A DNA stretch of 64,000 bases from Octopus vulgaris (lineage: Eukaryota): assembly GCA_951406725.2 (NCBI GenBank), contig OX597815.1, forward strand, positions 60,512,001 through 60,576,000, given 5' to 3'. A program made the position numbers and the translations under genes. A model generated the notes under the pieces. That model had not been told where the DNA came from, made no database searches, and was given only the letters and a program-made list of their open reading frames with translations. Of this stretch, positions 2,383-50,399 are shown piece by piece (within the stretch, counting starts at the first letter, position 1; every line of letters starts with the position of its first letter).

Positions 2383-3660
2383 TCAGATTGTTCTGATACA
2401 TTGTCTATAAGTTCTGTCCAAATTTTGAATAAAGAAAACAAGTGATCAAATGTTATATTTAATTGAAATTTAATCATCAATGTGCTTTCCTTGATTATTT
2501 ATGACTTCCTTTCACCTATTTACAAGCTTTTTAATCCCATCAATGTAAAACTCTTTTGGTTTCAAAGCGAAGAACTCTGTAATGTCAGTTTCGACCTCCT
2601 CCTGGCTTGCGAGAGTTATGTCCCCCAAATGATTCTGTAAAGCACGAAACAAATGGTAGTCTGAAGGAGCAAGGTCGGGAGAATAAGGTAGATGAGAAAT
2701 TTTTTCCCAACCAAGCTCTTCGATCTTCTGTGATGTGATTTTTTCAGCGTGGGGTCGCGCATTGTCCTGATGAAACATCACTCCTCGATTCACTAAAGCG
2801 GGTTTTTTTCTTCAAAGCTTGGTTCAAACGCTCTAATTGCTGACAGTAGACATTAGCATTAGTTGTTGCATTAGGTAGTAACAATTCAAAGTGAATTACT
2901 CCTTTGCAATCCCACCATATAGAGAGAAGAACCATTTTCCCATGAAGTTCCCTTTTCGGTTGCGGTTGAGCTTTTTCCCTTTTATCAAGCCATTGTTTAC
3001 GACGTTTAACATTTCGATAGAAGATCCATTTTTAGTCACCAGTCACAAGTCTATCCAAAAAGGGTGAAATGACTTCGCCAGACTGGAGAGAAGAGCAGAT
3101 GTCAACTCGGGATTTGCTGTTGCTTTTGGACAATTCATGAGGCATCCATTTTCCAAGTTTAGGAACTTTTCCAAGTTGTTGAAGATGACGATGAACAGTT
3201 GTATGGTTTGACCTAAGCTTTATTGCCAATTCTTCAACTGATAATGCAGGATTTTCTTCAAGTAATGCCTCAAGGAGCTTATCATCAAATTCAACTGGAC
3301 GTCTTGTTCGATCTTCATCGAAATCTCCACTTCTGAATTTTGCAAATCATTTTCTGCAAATTCTTTCATTCAAGCATTATTTCCCATAAACTGAGTGTAT
3401 GTTTTGAATCGTTTCGGCTGCAGAGTTTCCTGTTTTGTACTCATAAAGCATTATGTGCCTTAAATGCTCTTTGGATGCTTCCATGTTAGAAAATGTTTTA
3501 ATCAAAGAAATTTTATTATTCTGTAAAATAATATTTAATTAGTTTAAATGTACACAAATGCATAAAAATAATTTTTAATTCCATTAGACATTCTAAAATA
3601 TTAAATTTCATTCAATTTTAAAAAATGGTAAAATCGGACAGAACTTATGGGATGACATGA
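2383..3660 (-). mobile_element. Degenerate mariner (DD34D) transposon
   Basis: Frameshifted ORF pieces show WMPHEL, LVTGD, FHQDNARPH and YSPDLAPSDYHLF. TIR core ataagttctgtcc (left) / ggacagaacttat (right); TA at 2381-82 and 3661-62. Confidence 0.92.
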
Positions 3661-4119
3661 TAGTTAGATATATAAGAATAACAGCGGATTTAGATGTTTG
3701 AGAATATCAGTGTAGGTAGATATGTGCAAATAACAGTGTAGTTAGATCTGTGATGAAAACAGGGTAGTTACATATTGAGGTGTGAAAATACCAATGTAGT
3801 TAAATATGCCAGATTAAGAGTGTAGTGAGATATGTGAGAATAACTGGGTAGTTAGATATGCGAGATTAAGTGCGTAGTTAGATATGTGAGAATACAGTGT
3901 CGTTAGATGTATGATAATAACAGTCTAGTTAGATATGTGAGAATTATAGTGAGAATTATATATAAGAACATTGTGGTTAGATATTTGATAATAACCGCGT
4001 AGTTAGATATGTGCTATTACCAGTGCAGTTAGATGTATGAGAATCACAGTGTAGTTAGAAATGTGATCATAACAGTATTGTTAGATATGTTAGAATAAAA
4101 GTTTAGTTAGGTATATATA

Positions 4120-5060
4120 TAGAGAATACCAAACGAGTTCCCTATGGATACCGTATTTATTACAACGAGTGGCTTGTAAACGTATCTAACGAGCGAAAGC
4201 GAGTTAGATACGTTTACAAGCCACGAGTTGTAATAAATACGGTATCCATAGGGAATGAGTTTGGTATTTTATTTATTACACACGAATAAACGACCATATT
4301 TTATTAACCCAATAACTAAATTCTTCACATCGTGTTGAAGCGCGCATGAATACAGCTTGATTTCACGTCAGTGACGTCACAATGTATAACTGTAAAAGAT
4401 GTCATGCCGCAGGAAGATAGTCCGACTTTATAGCGCTAAGTTTTCAGGTGAAATGACTGATAACTGATGACTGTTTAACATTTTGTTAACATTCAAGTTC
4501 ACGTTCAAGAAATACATAACACATATTGAATCTTCAATAACTTTAATAATACTCATGTCGAACTTGGCCAGTATTGATCTTCACTTTGAACATTCTGTAT
4601 GTTCCAAGAGGTTGAACAACGGATAACACTCTTCCCCCATATTTACCATCAATCTTAACAAAATCATTCACCTTGATATCGACAACAGTAGCCATCTTGT
4701 TGATAGATCTACCTGCACTGCAAGAGTATCGACGAGCAGACGAAATATTTTGTGATTTTTTTGGCAACAAAAAATTTAATTACCACCAGAAATGTTTATA
4801 TTTTATGTGTATATGACTTTAAGTGATATCTGGTATAAAAAAGATAGTATGTGTGTTTAATTACATGGCTACATTCTACCTGCTCGTGAAAGTAATGAAT
4901 GAAGTTTAGTTGTAACTTATGAATGACAAAAGTAGTGCCGTCACCGTGACCTCGGGTTATCACCATGGATTGAACAATCAGAAGCAGCGCTCGCAGTATC
5001 TGACATATGTTAGATACCAAAAATATCTCAAAGTGTTCTCACTCACATGTGTGTGATAAA
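4120..5060. mobile_element. Non-autonomous Crypton-like DNA element with a terminal hairpin
   Basis: Non-satellite insert between TA-rich flanks. Hairpin at 4125-4268; inverted pair tttattacacac (4272) / gtgtgtgataaa (5049); TGACGTCA at 4372; truncated non-repetitive ORF. The family assignment is inference. Confidence 0.55.
4543..4695 (-). pseudogene. Truncated N-terminal fragment (MATVVDIKVNDFVKIDGKYGGRVLSV...) of the element's protein
   Basis: Complex, beta-rich-looking peptide after a Kozak-like aagATGG. From memory it resembles N-termini of mollusc Crypton/DUF3504 proteins; unverified. Confidence 0.35.
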
Positions 5061-5281
5061 TATAGATATATAGATAGACATATAGATATAAGTATAGATA
5101 GGTAAATAGATAGATATATAGATAGGTATATAGATATAAGTGTTTTGTTAGATGTGTGAAAATATCAGTATAGTTAGATATGTGAGAATAACAATGTTGT
5201 TAGATGGATGAAAAAAAGAGTTTAGTTAGTTATTACACACATGTGAGTGAGAACACTTTGAGATATTTTTGGTATCTAACA

Positions 5282-5338
<57 letters not shown>

Positions 5339-5822: not shown

Positions 5823-7258
5823 GATGTGTGAGCATAAGAGTGCAGTTAGGTGTGTAATATTAGCATATGTGGCTAGATTTATGAGAGCAATAGTGAAATA
5901 ACAGCGTAGTTAGATATGTGAGAGTAGCAGTGTAGTTAGATATTTGACATGATAATCACTGTTTACTTTGATGTGTTATAATAACTGCAGTTTGATATAT
6001 GATAATAACAGTCAAATTAGATATGTGAGAATAACAGTGTAACTCAATATGAGATAATAACAGTGTACAAAAATGTGTGTTAATAACAGTGTAGTTAGAT
6101 ATGTGAGACTAACATTGTAGTTAGATGTATAATAATGACAGTGTACTTAGTTGTGAGAGTAAAGGTGCAGTGAGACATGTATGAATAACAGTGTAGTTAG
6201 CTATGTGAGAATAACATTGTACTGAGATATATGAGAATAACAGTGTAGTTTAATGTGCAGGAATAGCAGTTTACTTAGATATATGAGAAGAACAGTGTAT
6301 TTGGTTGGGTGATAATAACAGTGTAGTGAGGTGTGTGATAATACCATTGTTGTTAGATATGTTTGAATTACTGTGTAGTTAGATATATAAGAATAACAGT
6401 GTAGTTAGATGCGTGAGTTAGATGACTGAGTTATGTGTAGCTAGATGTGTGAGAATAACAGTATAGTTTGATGTAGCTAACTACACTGTTATTCTCACAT
6501 ATCTAACTACATCGTTATTTTCACACATCTAACTACAAGTTATTCTCACATATCGAAGTACACAATTAATCTTGTATATCTAACTACACTCTTATTATCA
6601 CACATATAACTAGACTGTTATTCTCACATATGTATTTAAACTCATATTCTCTCATTTCTAACTACACTGTCAGAATAACAGTGTAGTTAGATGTATGGTA
6701 ATAACTTTGTAGTTAGATATTTTAATAACAGTGTAATTAGATAGATTAGGATAGACTAGTTACATGTGTGAGAATAATAGTGTAGATAGATATATCATAA
6801 CAACGGTGTAGTTAGTTATGTGAGAATAACAACTTAGATATTTGATGTGATAATTACGTCTTAGTTAGATGTGTGATGAATGCAGTGCAGTTAGATATGT
6901 GATTATAACTGTTAATTAGATTTGTGGGAATAATGGTGTAGCTAGATATGTGACAGAGTAGATAGATGTGTGATAATAAGGGTGTAGTTAGATATGTGAG
7001 AATAACAGTGTATTTGGATGTGTGATGATAACAGTGCAGTTCGATATGTGAACTGTAGTTAGTCGTGTAATAATAACAATGTACTTAGATGTGTAAGATT
7101 AACATTATCGTTAGATATGTAAGAATAACAACTTAGATAAATGAGAATAACTGTATTTGGATGTGTGATAATAACAGTATAGATAGATATGTGAGAATAA
7201 TAGTGCAGTTAGCTATGTGAGTATAACAGTGCAGTTAGATGTGTGATAACAGCAGCGT

Positions 7259-7584
7259 GTGAGGGCGCGTGGCTTAGTGGTTAGGGCATTCGGCTCATGA
7301 TCGTAAGGTTGTGAGTTCGATTCCCGGCGACGCGTTGTGTCCTTGAGCAAGACACTTTATTTCACGTTGCTCCAGTCCACTCAGCTGGCAAAAATGAGTT
7401 GTACTTGTATTTCAAAGGGTCAGCCTTGTCACTCTCTGTGTCACGCTGATTATCCCCGAGAACTACGTTAAGGGTACACGTGTCTGTGGAATGCTCAGCC
7501 ATTTGCACGTTAATTTCACGAGCAAGCTGTTCCGTTGATCGTATCAGCTGGGACCCTCGTCGTCGTAACCGGCGGAGTCTTTTG
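7259..7584 (+). mobile_element. tRNA-derived SINE with Meta-type central domain and an 11-bp TSD
   Basis: A box tggcttagtgg, B box gagttcgattcc, core gtgtccttgagcaagacactt. TSD aacagcagcgt at 7248-7258 and 7585-7595. Confidence 0.9.
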
Positions 7585-9234
7585 AACAGCAGCGTAGTTA
7601 GATGGGTGAGAACAACAATTTAATTGGATGTATGAGAATGAAAGTGTAGTGAGATATGTGATAACGGCGGTGTAGTTAGATATAAGAAAATAAGAATGTA
7701 GTTAGGTTTGTGAAAATAATAGTGTCTTTACATACGTGAGAATAACAGTGTAGTGGGACATGTGATAGTAACAATGTTGTTAGACATGTTATAACAATAA
7801 TGTAGTTAGATGTGTGATAATAACAGTGTAGTTAGATATTTAACAATAACATTCTAGTTAGATATATGACAAAAGAGTAAAAACAATAGAGTTGTTAGCT
7901 ATGTGGGAATAACAGTGTAGTTAGTTATGTGGAAATAAAGTGTTCTTAGATAAGTTAGAATAACAGTGTAGTTAGATATGTGTGTATATGTGTAGTTAGA
8001 TGTGAGGGAATAACTGCGACGTCAGGTGTATCAGAATAACGTTCTTACATATGTGAGAATAACAGTGTTGTTAGATGTGCGAGATTAAGTGTGTAGTTAG
8101 GTATGTGAGAAAAACAGCACAGTTCGATGTGTCATAACAACAGTGTAGTTAGATATATGAGAATAACAGTGAGGTTAGATGTGTATGAATAACACTGAAG
8201 TTAGATATGTGTGAATAATAGAGTAGTTGGATGTGTGATAATAACAGTGTAGCTATATGTGTGATAATGACAATGTTGTTAGATATATGATAATAACAGT
8301 GTAGTTAGATATGTGTGAGTAACACTGTACTTTGATATGTGATAATAACAGTGCAGTTATGTGTGAATAATAGTGTAGTTAAATGTGTGAGAAGAACAGT
8401 GTAGTTATATATGTGAGAATAACAGTGTAATTAGTTTAACTCTGTAGTTAGATGTGTGAGAATAAAAGTGTATCTATATGTGTGATAATGACAATGTAGA
8501 TATATATGTGAGCATAACAGTGTAGTTCAATGAGTGACGATAAAAGTGTAGTTAGATATGAGATAAGAGCATTGTGTGAAGTGAGAAGAAAATTGTATTT
8601 CTATGCGTGTCTTTTTGATTGCATATAAGTGCAGAAGTGTCCATATGTCTGTATAATTATATGCATGTATCTGTGAGTACTGCCGTGCATGCACAAGTCT
8701 TTGCCTTCTGTTGTGCCACTTTGAGATTGTGGTGTAAATCTGTGTTGGTGAATGTTTGTGTGTGCGCTTGTGTGCATAAGTGTGTGTATATTTGTTGTGT
8801 GAATTTGTGCCTGTGATTTAGTGTGTGCATGTGTGATTTGGGAATATGAGACAAAACAATGTTGACCACGACGACGACAACAAATCAAAAAAATATAAAG
8901 TAACCGGAAACGTAACGAAGAACAAAACAAACGGAAATCCGTATGGTAGCTGCAGATAACAGCAGCAGCAGCAGTTAAAGGCTTTTGTTGCACCTGCAGG
9001 TGGTGGCTACGGAGGTGGTGGTAGTGATAGTAGTGACAATGATGGTAGTAAGAGGGAATAGTTGTGGTGGGGTTATGTTTTATAGTAGTACTAAGAAAGG
9101 TGTGACACAAGCAGCAGCACCAACAGCAGCAGTGGCAGCAGCAGGAGTCGTAGTCATAGTGGTGATAGTAATCATGTTGATGGCGGAGTCGATCTTATGC
9201 AATATTACTGCCAAGAAAGGCTTAGCGGTTTTAC

Positions 9235-22578: not shown

Positions 22579-22625
22579 TACATATATATACATATATACA
22601 TAGTACTTACATATACACACATATA

Positions 22626-24208
22626 GAGTTGCGGCCAAAATGTTCAGAACGGCATTGTTTTCGTCAGAATAGTAAGTATAAGTTTTTATCAAAGTTGTTT
22701 TATATTCTATAATTTTCACAGACAATAAATACAATATTAATTTTTACTGTCTAAGATTTTGGTGTAATTTGTGAGGAGAATACAAAAGTTATGGATGATT
22801 TAGTGATTTACTGCAAAACCTATGGCGGCCAAAATGATCAGAACGGTTGAAAAAATAATAAAAAATGACAGAGAATACTGGTATTATTTAATATTTAGTG
22901 TGAAGCCCTTTAGCTTCAATCACACTCTGACATCTTCGACTGCATGAGGAAATTAAATTTTCAATTTCTTGCTGGGGTGATCTTATTCCATTCTTCCTGA
23001 AGGGAATTCCATAATTGCTCAGTTGTTTTAGGATTTCTGGCTTTCGAACGTTCTCCTAGAATATTCCATACATTTTCAATAGGATTGAGATCTGGGCTTT
23101 GAGCAGGCCAATCCATAACAATAACCTTTTCAACCTTGAAGAAGTTCATGACTACCTTAGCCTTGTGACATGGGGCGTTGTCCTGCATGAATATGGGTGG
23201 TCGCTTAGTTGAATTTCTCAGCACAGGCAAGACATGATCTTTTACAAGTTGTTTATAAACTCCTGCATTTACCTTTCCATGTAATCGTACCAAAGGGCCC
23301 ACACCATCTCCAGATATCATCCCCCAAACCATGACACTTCCTCCACCGAATTTAACACTAGTCTTAAGGCGTTTAGGCGACAATTTTTCACCTACTTTTC
23401 TACAAACGTACCTTTTCCCATCTGAGCCAAATAACATAAACTTAGATTCATCACTGAAATGCACCGTTTGCCATTTTTCTTGAGACCACAACACATGTTC
23501 GGTTGCAAAGGTAAGGCGACACTTTTTTATTCTTGGAGCTGATCAGTGGCTTCACTGCAGGTGCTCTTGCTTGTAGGTCATGTTCAACTAAACGACGAGA
23601 CACAGTTTTGAGAAACAGCGGAAGCAGTTTTAAATATGTCCTTTTTAACCAACTTTACCATAGCACGATCTTCTCTCTTGGTCGTTTTTCTTGGCCTACC
23701 TTTAAACTTTCTTGCTTCACACGAACCACAATCATCGTAGACCTTAAGAATACCGTGTACAACACCTTTTGACTTGTTAACAATCTTTGCAATAGATCCA
23801 ATACTTAAATTATCCTTCCTTCGAAGCTTAATAATCTGCTGACAAATTTGTAACGGAGTAAGTGGCATTATATTAACAAAGTACACTGCAAATATTCTTA
23901 CTAATGTTTAGTAAAGGAACCGTCAGGTAAACAAATTCAAAACATTAGAGTTCGCCGGTTAAATATACTAAAACACGGAGTAAAAGCAACCGTTCTGATC
24001 ATTTTGGCCGCCATGGGTTTTGCAGTAAAATCACTAAATCACCCATAACTTTTGTATTGTCCTCTCAAATTACACCAAAATCTTAGACAATAAAAATTAA
24101 TATTGTATTTATTGTCTGTGAAAATTATAGAATATAAAACAACTTTGATAAAAAAATATATCTACTTTTCTCACGAAAACAATGCCGTTCTGAACATTTT
24201 GGCCGCCA

Positions 24209-24211
<3 letters not shown>
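22626..24211 (-). mobile_element. Full-length Tc1 element of IR/DR type (~1.59 kb), frameshifted DD34E transposase (~23868-22895)
   Basis: ~224-bp TIRs (22626-22849, 23987-24211), each carrying two gcggccaaaatg(t/a)tcagaacgg direct repeats. TA flanks; motifs FSDESK, FMQDNAPCH, SPDLNPIENVW. Confidence 0.96.
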
Positions 24212-24270
<59 letters not shown>

Positions 24271-48063: not shown

Positions 48064-48370
48064 GTGACGCATATTTGCCATTTGAATATGGCTAACCCCT
48101 AAGGGTGGATGCTAATGTAGTTTGTAGCCCCAGGAAGATATCTCCTCCAGCTGGCTATAGACACACTATCTGTGCCCTATCAGTATTTGTGAAGGGAAGT
48201 CATCCTTCCCGTCTTCAACTTATGATAACATAAGTTGAAGACGGGAAGGATGACTTTCCTTCACAAATACTGATAGGGCACAGATAGTGTATATCTTCCT
48301 GTGGCTACAAACTACAGTAGCATCCACCCTTAGGGGTTAGCCATATTCAAATGGCAAATATGCGTCACGA
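48062..48370. repeat. Near-perfect 309-bp palindrome
   Basis: tcgtgacgca...aacttatg|ataa|cataagtt...tgcgtcacga; the left arm has ~21 extra nt. Confidence 0.93.
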
Positions 48371-48992: not shown

Positions 48993-49155
48993 TACATTAT
49001 TTACATTATTTACATTTGACAGATATTTATCCCTATCTTCTTTGTTGTTCACACAACTTTTCGGCTGATATACCATCCAGACTTCATCAGGTGTCATGGG
49101 GAAATTTCGAACCTGGATTATCATTCCTAAGGTATTTTTCGATGTTGTTATTGTA

Positions 49156-49212
<57 letters not shown>

Positions 49213-49275
49213 ATTATTATTATTATTATTATTATTATCATCATCATTCAGGTCACTGCTTGGAATCGAACTCGG
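48993..49275 (-). mobile_element. 5'-truncated inverted copy of the tRNA-(AAT)n-HHR SINE
   Basis: Reverse complement: ccgagttcgattccaagcagtgacctgaat-(AAT)n-acatcgaaaaatacc...ctgatgaag...gaaa...gtaaataatgta. Confidence 0.8.
49051..49094 (-). ncRNA. Minimal type I hammerhead motif
   Basis: Minus strand: acac-CTGATGA-a-gtctgg-atggtata-tcagcc-GAAA-ag-TT-gtgt. Confidence 0.68.
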
Positions 49276-49436
49276 GCATATGGCGGAGAGGTTAAGAGCG
49301 CGGGCTACTAACCACAAGATTCCGAGTTCAATTCAACGCAGTGACCTGAATGATAATAATAATAATGATAATAATAATAATAATAATAATAATAGTCTCT
49401 AAAAGAAATGGATAAATTCTCAATAGAGAAATTCTC

Positions 49437-49875
49437 AGATAGAGAAATTAAGGCCAACAGACCAGATATAGTTGTCAGAGACCATGAAGAAAAAAAATGC
49501 TTTCTAATTGATGTATCAATACCGGCTGATGACAACGTGTCTCTAAAAGAAATGGAGAAACTCTCAAAATACAAAGACCTGGAAATAGAGGTAACTAGAA
49601 TGTGGAACCTGAAAACAGAAACAATTCCTATCATAGTAGGTGCATTAGGCATGATAAAACAATATTCAGACAAATACATAACAAAAACACCAGGACTTAC
49701 AAACACATATAACATACAGAAAATTGCACTACTAGGCACTGCACACATCCTACGCAGAACACTTTCCATACAATAACCATCAGAGCATCACAACAAATCA
49801 CAGCACATACCCAAGGCACACAGGGCTGCGCTCGGTAGTGAAGTGAAAGCACGCTAAAAAAATAAAACTACTGAA
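49437..49875 (+). mobile_element. R4/Dong-like LINE 3' fragment (family A)
   Basis: DREIKANRPDIVVRDH...LIDVSIP...EKLSKYKDL...IIVGALG; flanked by (AAT)n. Confidence 0.92.
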
Positions 49876-49914
49876 TAATAATAATAATAATAATAATAAC
49901 AACAACAACAACAG

Positions 49915-50044
<130 letters not shown>

Positions 50045-50116
50045 AAGAAGAAGAAGAAGAAGAATAACATCGAAAAATACCTTAGGAATGAGAACCCAGA
50101 TTCGAAATTTCCCCAA

Positions 50117-50162
50117 GGCACCTGATGAAGGGTGGAGAGTATATCAGCCGAAACGTTGTGTT
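50117..50162 (+). ncRNA. Minimal type I hammerhead ribozyme
   Basis: ggcac-CTGATGA-a-gggtgg-agagtata-tcagcc-GAAA-cg-TT-gtgtt. Confidence 0.75.
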
Positions 50163-50399
50163 AACAACAAACAAGATGAGCACAAATACCCGTTAAATGT
50201 AAATAATGCAAATAATGTACATAATTCCTCGTTTCTTAAATATAGAACTGTAGTACTTTTTCTGTCGGTCTCTAAGTTACAGGGATGTAAACACACCAAC
50301 ACCGATTGTCAAGTGGTGGTGGAACGTGTGACAAACATAGACACAAAGACACACCTACATCCATACACACGCACACACATACATATACTATCAGCTCGT

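Follow-up and report, generated by a model that had tools for sequence, protein, structure and literature searches.

Tandem G.A mismatches in the terminal hairpin of an octopus CryptonA-type element: a candidate attC-like substrate for single-strand recombination

We have investigated the question raised by a gapless 70-bp hairpin in the genome of Octopus vulgaris, in a 64,000-nt stretch of contig OX597815.1 (assembly GCA_951406725.2, positions 60,512,001 to 60,576,000, forward strand) referred to here as the window: what is a palindrome whose imperfections all look alike doing there? An earlier note, made from the letters of the window alone, had proposed that the structure is selected to fold on one strand, as a single-stranded DNA (ssDNA) recombination or replication substrate analogous to integron attC sites or rolling-circle origins, in an animal transposon. 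The alignment of its copies places the hairpin at one end of a non-autonomous element of 941 bp, an internally deleted member of a young CryptonA-type family. We think it fairly probable that this end is an attC/CTX-like substrate, a hairpin which would fold on the strand carrying the GA mismatches (the GA strand), build a recombination site and undergo a single exchange.

The hairpin itself is as first described. Its arms (4125-4194 and 4268-4199) pair without gaps at a position sum of 8393, and the sole non-Watson-Crick sites are three G.A/A.G tandems and one G.T, beneath an apex formed by the mini-hairpin GCGAAAGC (Table 1). Five of the six GA motifs have the form CGAG, the sixth, in the right arm of the outer site, being TGAG. 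The folding z-score is -17.9 and none of 200 shuffles folds equally well. The mismatches are the consensus of the family and do not reflect decay of the window copy. CGAG words facing each other form a C:G pair, two sheared G:A pairs and a G:C pair according to nuclear magnetic resonance (PMC10085684). In PMC13037366, GCGAAAGC is given a melting temperature of 76.5 C and GCTTTTGC, which is near, but not identical to, the complement of GCGAAAGC, one of 33.0 C.

Copies of the element are numerous and similar. A search of the octopus genome returned 368 candidates, the 40 scored showing 95-100% identity over 371 bp, and exact short motifs are counted 211 times for the left end and 279 times for the far end, the family comprising at least 279 copies. 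Sequence is near-invariant from 4119 onward in 118 copies. Copy length varies by internal deletion from approximately 320 to 2420 bp, the match of the window copy to the 2.4-kb copies being broken at 4555, and copies are dispersed and single, without a cassette array. The two ends differ, and neither terminal inverted nor terminal direct repeats are found in the copy alignment or flanks. An identity as a miniature inverted-repeat transposable element (MITE) or other transposon with terminal inverted repeats (TIRs), or with collapsed TIRs, was rejected, the hairpin being present at one end only and without target-site duplication. More than 12 copies (L228, L235, L252, L254, L256, L273, L276, L278, L279, L281, L282, L286, L287 and others) have one common left flank and mostly carry a 43-nt apex deletion, and were therefore amplified as passengers of another repeat; such copies were collapsed by flank before counting.

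The partner enzyme is a tyrosine recombinase (YR), as the earlier note had anticipated in naming a DUF3504-type recombinase as one possible partner. Searching the octopus genome for DUF3504 gave 18 matches, seven of them within 2.3-2.4-kb copies having both ends. Full-length 2.4-kb copies have a single long open reading frame (ORF), on the opposite strand and reading towards the hairpin, whose protein matches PF12012 (DUF3504, E 1.7e-26), PF00589 (Phage_integrase, E 7e-9) and QRICH1. The catalytic R-H-R-H-Y set (R294, H422, R425, H448 and Y457 in P0002 numbering) is invariant in 36 of 36 aligned relatives, in contrast to domesticated DUF3504 genes, and the predicted structure (mean pLDDT 83) aligns best with Cre, XerA, QRICH1 and IntI4. 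At the C-terminus, which is disordered in the model, no Pfam match to GCR1_C, the mark of CryptonF, was obtained at E 0.01, and on these sequence grounds we assign the element to the CryptonA type; the recombinase tree was built without reference Cryptons. Among named proteins, the closest, labelled Octopus sinensis, shares 97% identity, and others are from molluscs and a sea anemone; viral contigs give weak phage-integrase matches alone, at E 7e-6 or worse. No RNA data set carrying the element was listed, which speaks neither for nor against its expression. An HUH Rep partner (Helitron, Replitron or rolling-circle) was rejected, and with it the rolling-circle origin once considered, because the only long ORF of the 2.4-kb element is a YR. 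Three further single-exon DUF3504 ORFs in the octopus genome (L053, L054 and L057, encoding P0003-P0005) do not match the element ends, have an incomplete catalytic set by eye and are likely domesticated Crypton genes.

The rejoined flanks of 90 distinct insertions yield the target consensus ATAH-N6-DTAW (A at -2 in 89, T at -3 in 76, T at +7 in 73, C at +6 in 2 and G at +8 in 0), with mirror symmetry peaking at a 6-bp spacer, also after removal of TA runs (78 remain). The only bias within the spacer is A at +0 (66/90), and the 6-bp spacer of the element is fully matched by none of the 78 targets, indicating no spacer homology. Fifteen hold-out targets agree, position +7 being weaker (T in 9/15), and the window insertion site reads ATAT, ATATAG, ATAT. 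Position -1 is variable at the left junction and fixed at the right, +0 behaves in the reverse manner, and a single crossover without a direct repeat is therefore indicated. A two-strand exchange over a non-homologous spacer should sometimes leave the target spacer at the left end; among 20 copies picked for failing the left-end motif, 18 had the spacer of the element or a variant of it and two were truncated. Cleavage by tyrosine recombinases falls, on either strand, at the spacer's 5' edge, so that the observed crossover would lie on the + strand, which is the GA strand. The strand that is cut would then be the strand that folds, a deduction independent of the mismatch data.

A further feature, absent from the earlier note, lies just past the hairpin, where 4273-4283 is complementary to the far end at 5049-5059. 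A natural head-to-tail junction (L207) folds with 14 bp more of stem, which crosses the junction and has a 2-nt bulge in its 5' arm. Among 19 loci with far sequence, the best inner-region match exceeds all 30 shuffles in 11; these matches lie 57-449 nt past the ORF match, mostly finish in ATAA, and in seven cases exceed every far region of the other families. The far-end complement is imperfect and 9-24 nt long, the lower value being that of the L082 family, in which the homology limit also finishes in ATAA. When a motif fixes the terminus and the stem fixes the register, 8 of 12 loci have their ATAA box finishing 2 nt inside, and a box with one mismatch was found by eye at that place in three further loci. 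The folded junction is predicted to present two boxes whose spacer measures 7 nt along the 5' arm and 5 nt along the opposite one; as duplex, the spacing is 7 at the junction and 5 in the inner copy, that of the targets being 6 bp.

The GA tandems recur in related families. Relatives were taken from a scan of metagenome contigs, the 80 loci used being the best of 389 confirmed. An unselected inverted-repeat scan detects a hairpin downstream of the ORF in 22 of 63 loci with enough sequence and upstream in 12 of 55. On the antisense strand, two-by-two loops downstream are GA/GA in 14 and TC/TC in 2 of 33, and those upstream are TC/TC in 6 and GA/GA in 1 of 24. By eye, 24 of the 34 hits were retained as element ends and 10 discarded (downstream L129 and L137; upstream L074, L075, L104, L119, L124, L125, L137 and L138). 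When the retained ends and the octopus copy are read on the hairpin-first strand, 44 of 79 two-by-two loops are GA/GA and six are TC/TC, all six adjoining an inverted apex. The arms form 11 clusters that are 31-66% alike, 10 of which contain GA/GA; a core word is common to several clusters, and the number of independent arm groups is perhaps approximately six. GNA or GAAA caps likewise occur on the one strand, and in eight related loci the hairpin terminates in a GCGNAGC triloop, a motif described as a DNA mini-hairpin (PMC13037366). Four loci (L078, L082, L101 and L103) have the hairpin upstream of the ORF with GA on the coding strand and lie in a separate, well-supported clade (98/97). Relative to the ORF, the GA strand is thus antisense in one clade but sense in the other, and is therefore defined by the ends of the element and not by transcription. 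The proposal of folding on one strand is therefore upheld to the extent that GA/GA recurs on one defined strand across families with dissimilar arms. A distinct GA/GA hairpin family adjoins Crypton ORFs in two metagenome contigs (L104:1700-1880 and downstream in L137), probably as nested non-autonomous elements of like design.

Combined, these features suggest the following route. The GA strand would become exposed, probably at a replication fork, where the mini-hairpin cap and sheared G.A tandems would let it fold, the TC strand folding worse. The recombinase would exchange only the GA strand between the two ends, freeing a single-stranded circle within which the joined ends would pair with the inner region to build a two-box site with an asymmetric 7/5-nt spacer; the duplex junction (7) and the inner copy (5) would both miss the 6-bp spacing of the target. 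One strand exchange with a duplex ATAH-N6-DTAW target would insert the strand, to be finished by replication or repair. The GA tandems may also break up the 70-bp palindrome in duplex, cheaply for the folded strand. Both the complementarity to the far end and the single crossover at the target speak for an ssDNA recombination substrate of the attC-like kind, in which folding in vivo and single-strand chemistry are inferred.

Several observations weigh against this reading. The ViennaRNA DNA model gives -68.3 kcal/mol for the GA strand and -66.0 kcal/mol for the opposite strand (-66.3 and -64.2 kcal/mol for the bare hairpin), a gap of only approximately 2 kcal/mol. As the opposite strand folds nearly as well in the model, the computed energy lends strand specificity little support; the stability of mini-hairpins is described as unexplained by current parameters (PMC13037366). 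Eight of the 19 loci have no far-end match above shuffles, only seven of the 11 matches exceed the best far region of another family, and the octopus match itself (12) is below the best such region (13). An earlier free automatic choice of register was ambiguous, with just 5 of 16 loci at +2, and the motif-terminus rule was written after the data and the free choice had been seen. Copies lacking the left spacer are possibly under-sampled. The hairpin of L111 has no GA/GA, and of 21 loci flanked by 1 kb on each side only 13 pass the hairpin threshold; the remaining eight nest among hairpin-bearing relatives in the tree, and seven of them show deleted or displaced hairpin remnants. Finally, GA/GA is not invariant among octopus copies. 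A conversion survey took a subset of 82 copies from the left-end motif list, and all three sites are present in 60; 31 of these complete hairpins have GA/GA throughout (two with a point change), and in the other 29 a site has been copied from the other arm, restoring Watson-Crick pairing, or the centre is inverted. Seventeen of the 82 are classed as deleted at one or more sites without conversion, and the commonest non-canonical pattern (6/60) retains no GA/GA and may have transposed further.

The expected invariance of the GA/GA positions, on which the earlier note had staked its reading, thus fails, and what replaces GA/GA is copied from arm to arm rather than randomly mismatched. Strong pressure to perfect the palindrome is evident from the conversions. 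Overwriting at the outer site affects the left arm in 16 copies and the right arm in three (p 0.004), and where both outer sites are converted the directions are opposite in nine copies and the same in three. Copies identical outside the GA sites differ in conversion state, and the commonest converted pattern recurs in several sub-lineages. No link of conversion with divergence was detected (p 0.35 overall; p 0.75 in the 410-bp class, 13 vs 17 copies) in a comparison of low resolution, and within-family covariation, with three compensated pairs vs 156 one-sided changes, is uninformative. Assembly artefact is an unlikely source of the converted copies, as short-read contigs agree, with library template switching still a possible one: such contigs match the diagnostic junctions of converted copy L248 with zero differences, the left end occurs with a converted outer site in X10 and X13, the middle GA with an inverted centre in X9, X11 and X13, a 43-nt deletion in X10 and X13, and a 54-nt deletion in X10. 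Template switching between inverted repeats is described as a generic cause of arm homogenisation and spacer inversion (PMC8604942), and the conversions are therefore no proof of a transposition intermediate. Across distant families the consensus nonetheless stays GA/GA, and this implies that selection or a repair filter favours it.

That alternative, a stability and repair filter, survives best among the rivals, and we hold it to be unlikely. The hairpin would aid synapsis of the ends or replication pausing, an ordinary duplex circle would recombine, and GA/GA would be kept as a palindrome breaker and the least-corrected mismatch, unread by the recombinase. Common and recurrent conversion fits this account, as do the homogenisation of arms known from template switching, the tie between a Watson-Crick middle site and centre inversion (13/16 centre-inverted copies vs 9/44 others, p 3e-5) and the near absence of TC/TC at the outer sites (1/82 and 0/68; 2/20 extra copies at the middle site). 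However, it leaves unexplained why the joined ends have an inner copy, with a 2-nt excess that is conserved, and why a single crossover without coupling sequence at either end is constantly seen. A filter of this kind can hold for the GA sites alongside folded-strand recombination at the junction.

A splint resembling that of DIRS is a more doubtful explanation, in which the inner region would anneal both ends of an excised linear strand for ligation and a duplex circle would then integrate. DIRS-1's internal complementary region (ICR) complements both extremities and is described as needed for retrotransposition via single-stranded cDNA (PMC7192593), and the octopus inner region is likewise complementary to both ends. 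The DIRS-1 ICR is, however, described as exactly complementary, whereas the pairing that adjoins the junction here is imperfect and, in most families, 2 nt short, which fits a recognition feature better than a ligation splint; moreover, there is no reverse transcriptase to provide the strand, and insertion leaves no repeated core. Very improbable is a role of the hairpin in RNA, as terminator, silencing trigger or guide: GNRA loops, like tandem GA pairs, are stable in RNA and RNA parameters separate the strands more (-108.0 vs -98.5 kcal/mol), but relative to the ORF the GA strand changes from antisense to sense between the two clades, junction pairing requires the joining of ends 0.4-2.4 kb apart, and the GCGNAGC triloops of related loci are described as DNA mini-hairpins. 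Equally implausible is duplex binding, with the CGAG motifs as directly repeated protein sites facing each other incidentally: an ACGAG-like word does recur up to six times in one orientation in the hairpin, but the motifs are exactly opposed across the axis in families with unrelated stems and differing motif numbers, a register that binding would not need.

Comparison with known systems places the folded-strand substrate among YR elements. CryptonA elements (PMC3212892; fungal Glomhoppers, PMC13465315) similarly have a single DUF3504-type YR ORF, a length of approximately 2-2.4 kb, no TIRs, abundant non-autonomous deletion derivatives and an animal host. Kojima and Jurka (2011, PMC3212892) report finding no terminal repeats in animal Cryptons, and three CryptonA rows of the supplement give 'n.d.'; the words hairpin, palindrome and single-strand are absent from the main texts of PMC3212892 and PMC13465315. 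The excised-circle model restated in PMC3212892 has 4-6-bp direct repeats, whereas the octopus element has no direct repeat but a terminal hairpin, an inner copy of the junction and a palindromic target. In integron attC x attI recombination by IntI, a YR acts on one folding strand, with variable stems, a site rebuilt by the stem with unpaired bases, an asymmetric spacer and one strand exchange finished by replication (PMC7439510), and attC hairpins are described as having a stable GC-rich apex resisting single-strand binding protein (PMC5737091). The 2-nt spacer excess in 8/12 loci is analogous to the extrahelical bases of attC, differing in arrangement. Unlike an integron cassette, the octopus element encodes its own enzyme, has neither cassette array nor attI platform, uses ATAH/DTAW rather than RYYYAAC boxes and gains its site only on joining of the ends; tandem sheared G.A pairs are not among the attC features in the portions of PMC7439510 and PMC5737091 available, and the mechanism, proven for integrons, would apply here by analogy. 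Phage CTX differs in using host Xer enzymes at one chromosomal site, the octopus element having its own enzyme and many degenerate sites. Integration of CTX proceeds from a single strand. At dif (XerC/D), its circular single strand folds into the YR attachment site (PMC9345347). DIRS-1 shares the YR, the internal region complementary to both ends and single-stranded intermediates (PMC7192593); the octopus element lacks reverse transcriptase and gag as well as inverted or split terminal repeats, and its complement is short, imperfect and fused to the terminal hairpin. In Vibrio SE elements, YRs circularise one specific strand, but SE has four genes, no inverted-repeat att structure and carries a 6-bp donor spacer (PMC9345347), whereas the octopus element takes no donor bases along. 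The element belongs to none of the integron, DIRS and Helitron families, and most likely works like an attC site.

A literature search of titles and abstract starts found no hairpin, palindrome or single-strand mechanism for Cryptons or Eulors, though Repbase or Dfam may mention a hairpin. Some Eulor consensus descriptions are said to do so. In the literature found, the ends of animal Cryptons are reported without repeats and no substrate for their mobility is described. From the octopus family come a near-intact enzyme, ends that are exactly known, a consensus for the target, predictions of where and on which strand the cut falls, and a predicted folded substrate, and the mechanism can therefore be tested with oligonucleotides. 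More generally, animal CryptonA elements may be eukaryotic counterparts of integron cassettes, a proposition that we regard as evenly balanced: the recombinase would read DNA structure instead of duplex sequence, cut only the G.A-folded strand, release a single-stranded circle and insert it by a single exchange at replication, the sheared G.A tandems serving as repair-evading, strand-selecting mismatches. If true, a structure-specific single-strand recombinase would be active in animal nuclei, where one integron paper doubts the survival of single-strand intermediates (PMC7439510), tandem sheared G.A pairs and DNA mini-hairpins would have a biological role, and eukaryotes would possess a fourth route of DNA transposition beside DDE, HUH and duplex-circle YR. 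The substrate may also hint at the ancestral DNA bound by Crypton-derived DUF3504 proteins (ZMYM2-4, QRICH1, KCTD1 and KIAA1958).

Table 1. Features of the octopus element and its insertion site, in window positions.
Feature	Position	Strand	Basis or detail
Left box of host target, ATAT (consensus ATAH)	4115..4118	+	Flank logos; crossover between 4118 and 4119
Putative internally deleted CryptonA-type element	4119..5059	+ (= GA strand)	Homology limits among copies; agreement with both termini of the YR-encoding 2.4-kb copies
Element terminus: 7-nt spacer 4119-4125 and inner box ATAC 4126-4129	4119..4129	+	Copy alignment; 7-nt top spacer also in related families
Gapless 70-bp hairpin	4125..4268	+	Pairing check and folding
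Outer GA tandem and G.T	4135..4137	+	Opposite 4256-4258 (4135-36/4258-57; G.T 4137/4256)
Middle GA tandem	4167..4168	+	Opposite 4225-4226 (4167-68/4226-25)
Inner GA tandem	4191..4192	+	Opposite 4201-4202 (4191-92/4202-01)
GCGAAAGC mini-hairpin cap (apex)	4193..4200	+	Pairing check; cap melting temperature from PMC13037366
Inner region complementary to joined ends	4264..4283	+	Box 4264-4267, 5-nt spacer 4268-4272, 11 nt 4273-4283
First 47 codons of tyrosine recombinase ORF, remainder deleted	4555..4695	-	tblastn with P0006, 96% identity
Far end, finishing in ATAA	5049..5059	+	Copy comparison; one change (5055) from family consensus in window copy
Remaining host target	5060..5069	+	6-bp spacer 5060-5065, right box ATAT 5066-5069 (consensus DTAW)

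The surroundings of the element are rich in repeats. An isolated second far end of the same element (5227-5284, minus strand) follows 170 bp downstream in inverted orientation, with 97% identity over 58 bp; it continues into a TAT microsatellite and is probably a truncated second insertion. Degenerate 26-bp satellite arrays occupy 1826-2304, 3660-4110 and 5893-8560, with the block 6477-6670 inverted, and the Crypton copy sits inserted in this satellite, as does a broken reading frame (3000-3485, minus strand) that we take, from its helix-turn-helix and start of a catalytic domain, to be a mariner-like transposase. Long inverted-repeat pairs at 22608-24229 (202 nt, 92%) and 48993-50219 (256 nt, 84%) are probably TIR elements. 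At 48163-48290, a near-perfect 62-bp Watson-Crick hairpin without GA tandems belongs to an abundant repeat (1958 candidates), other copies of which carry the same 128 bp in opposite orientations a few hundred bases apart, so that it looks like a MITE with a deleted middle.
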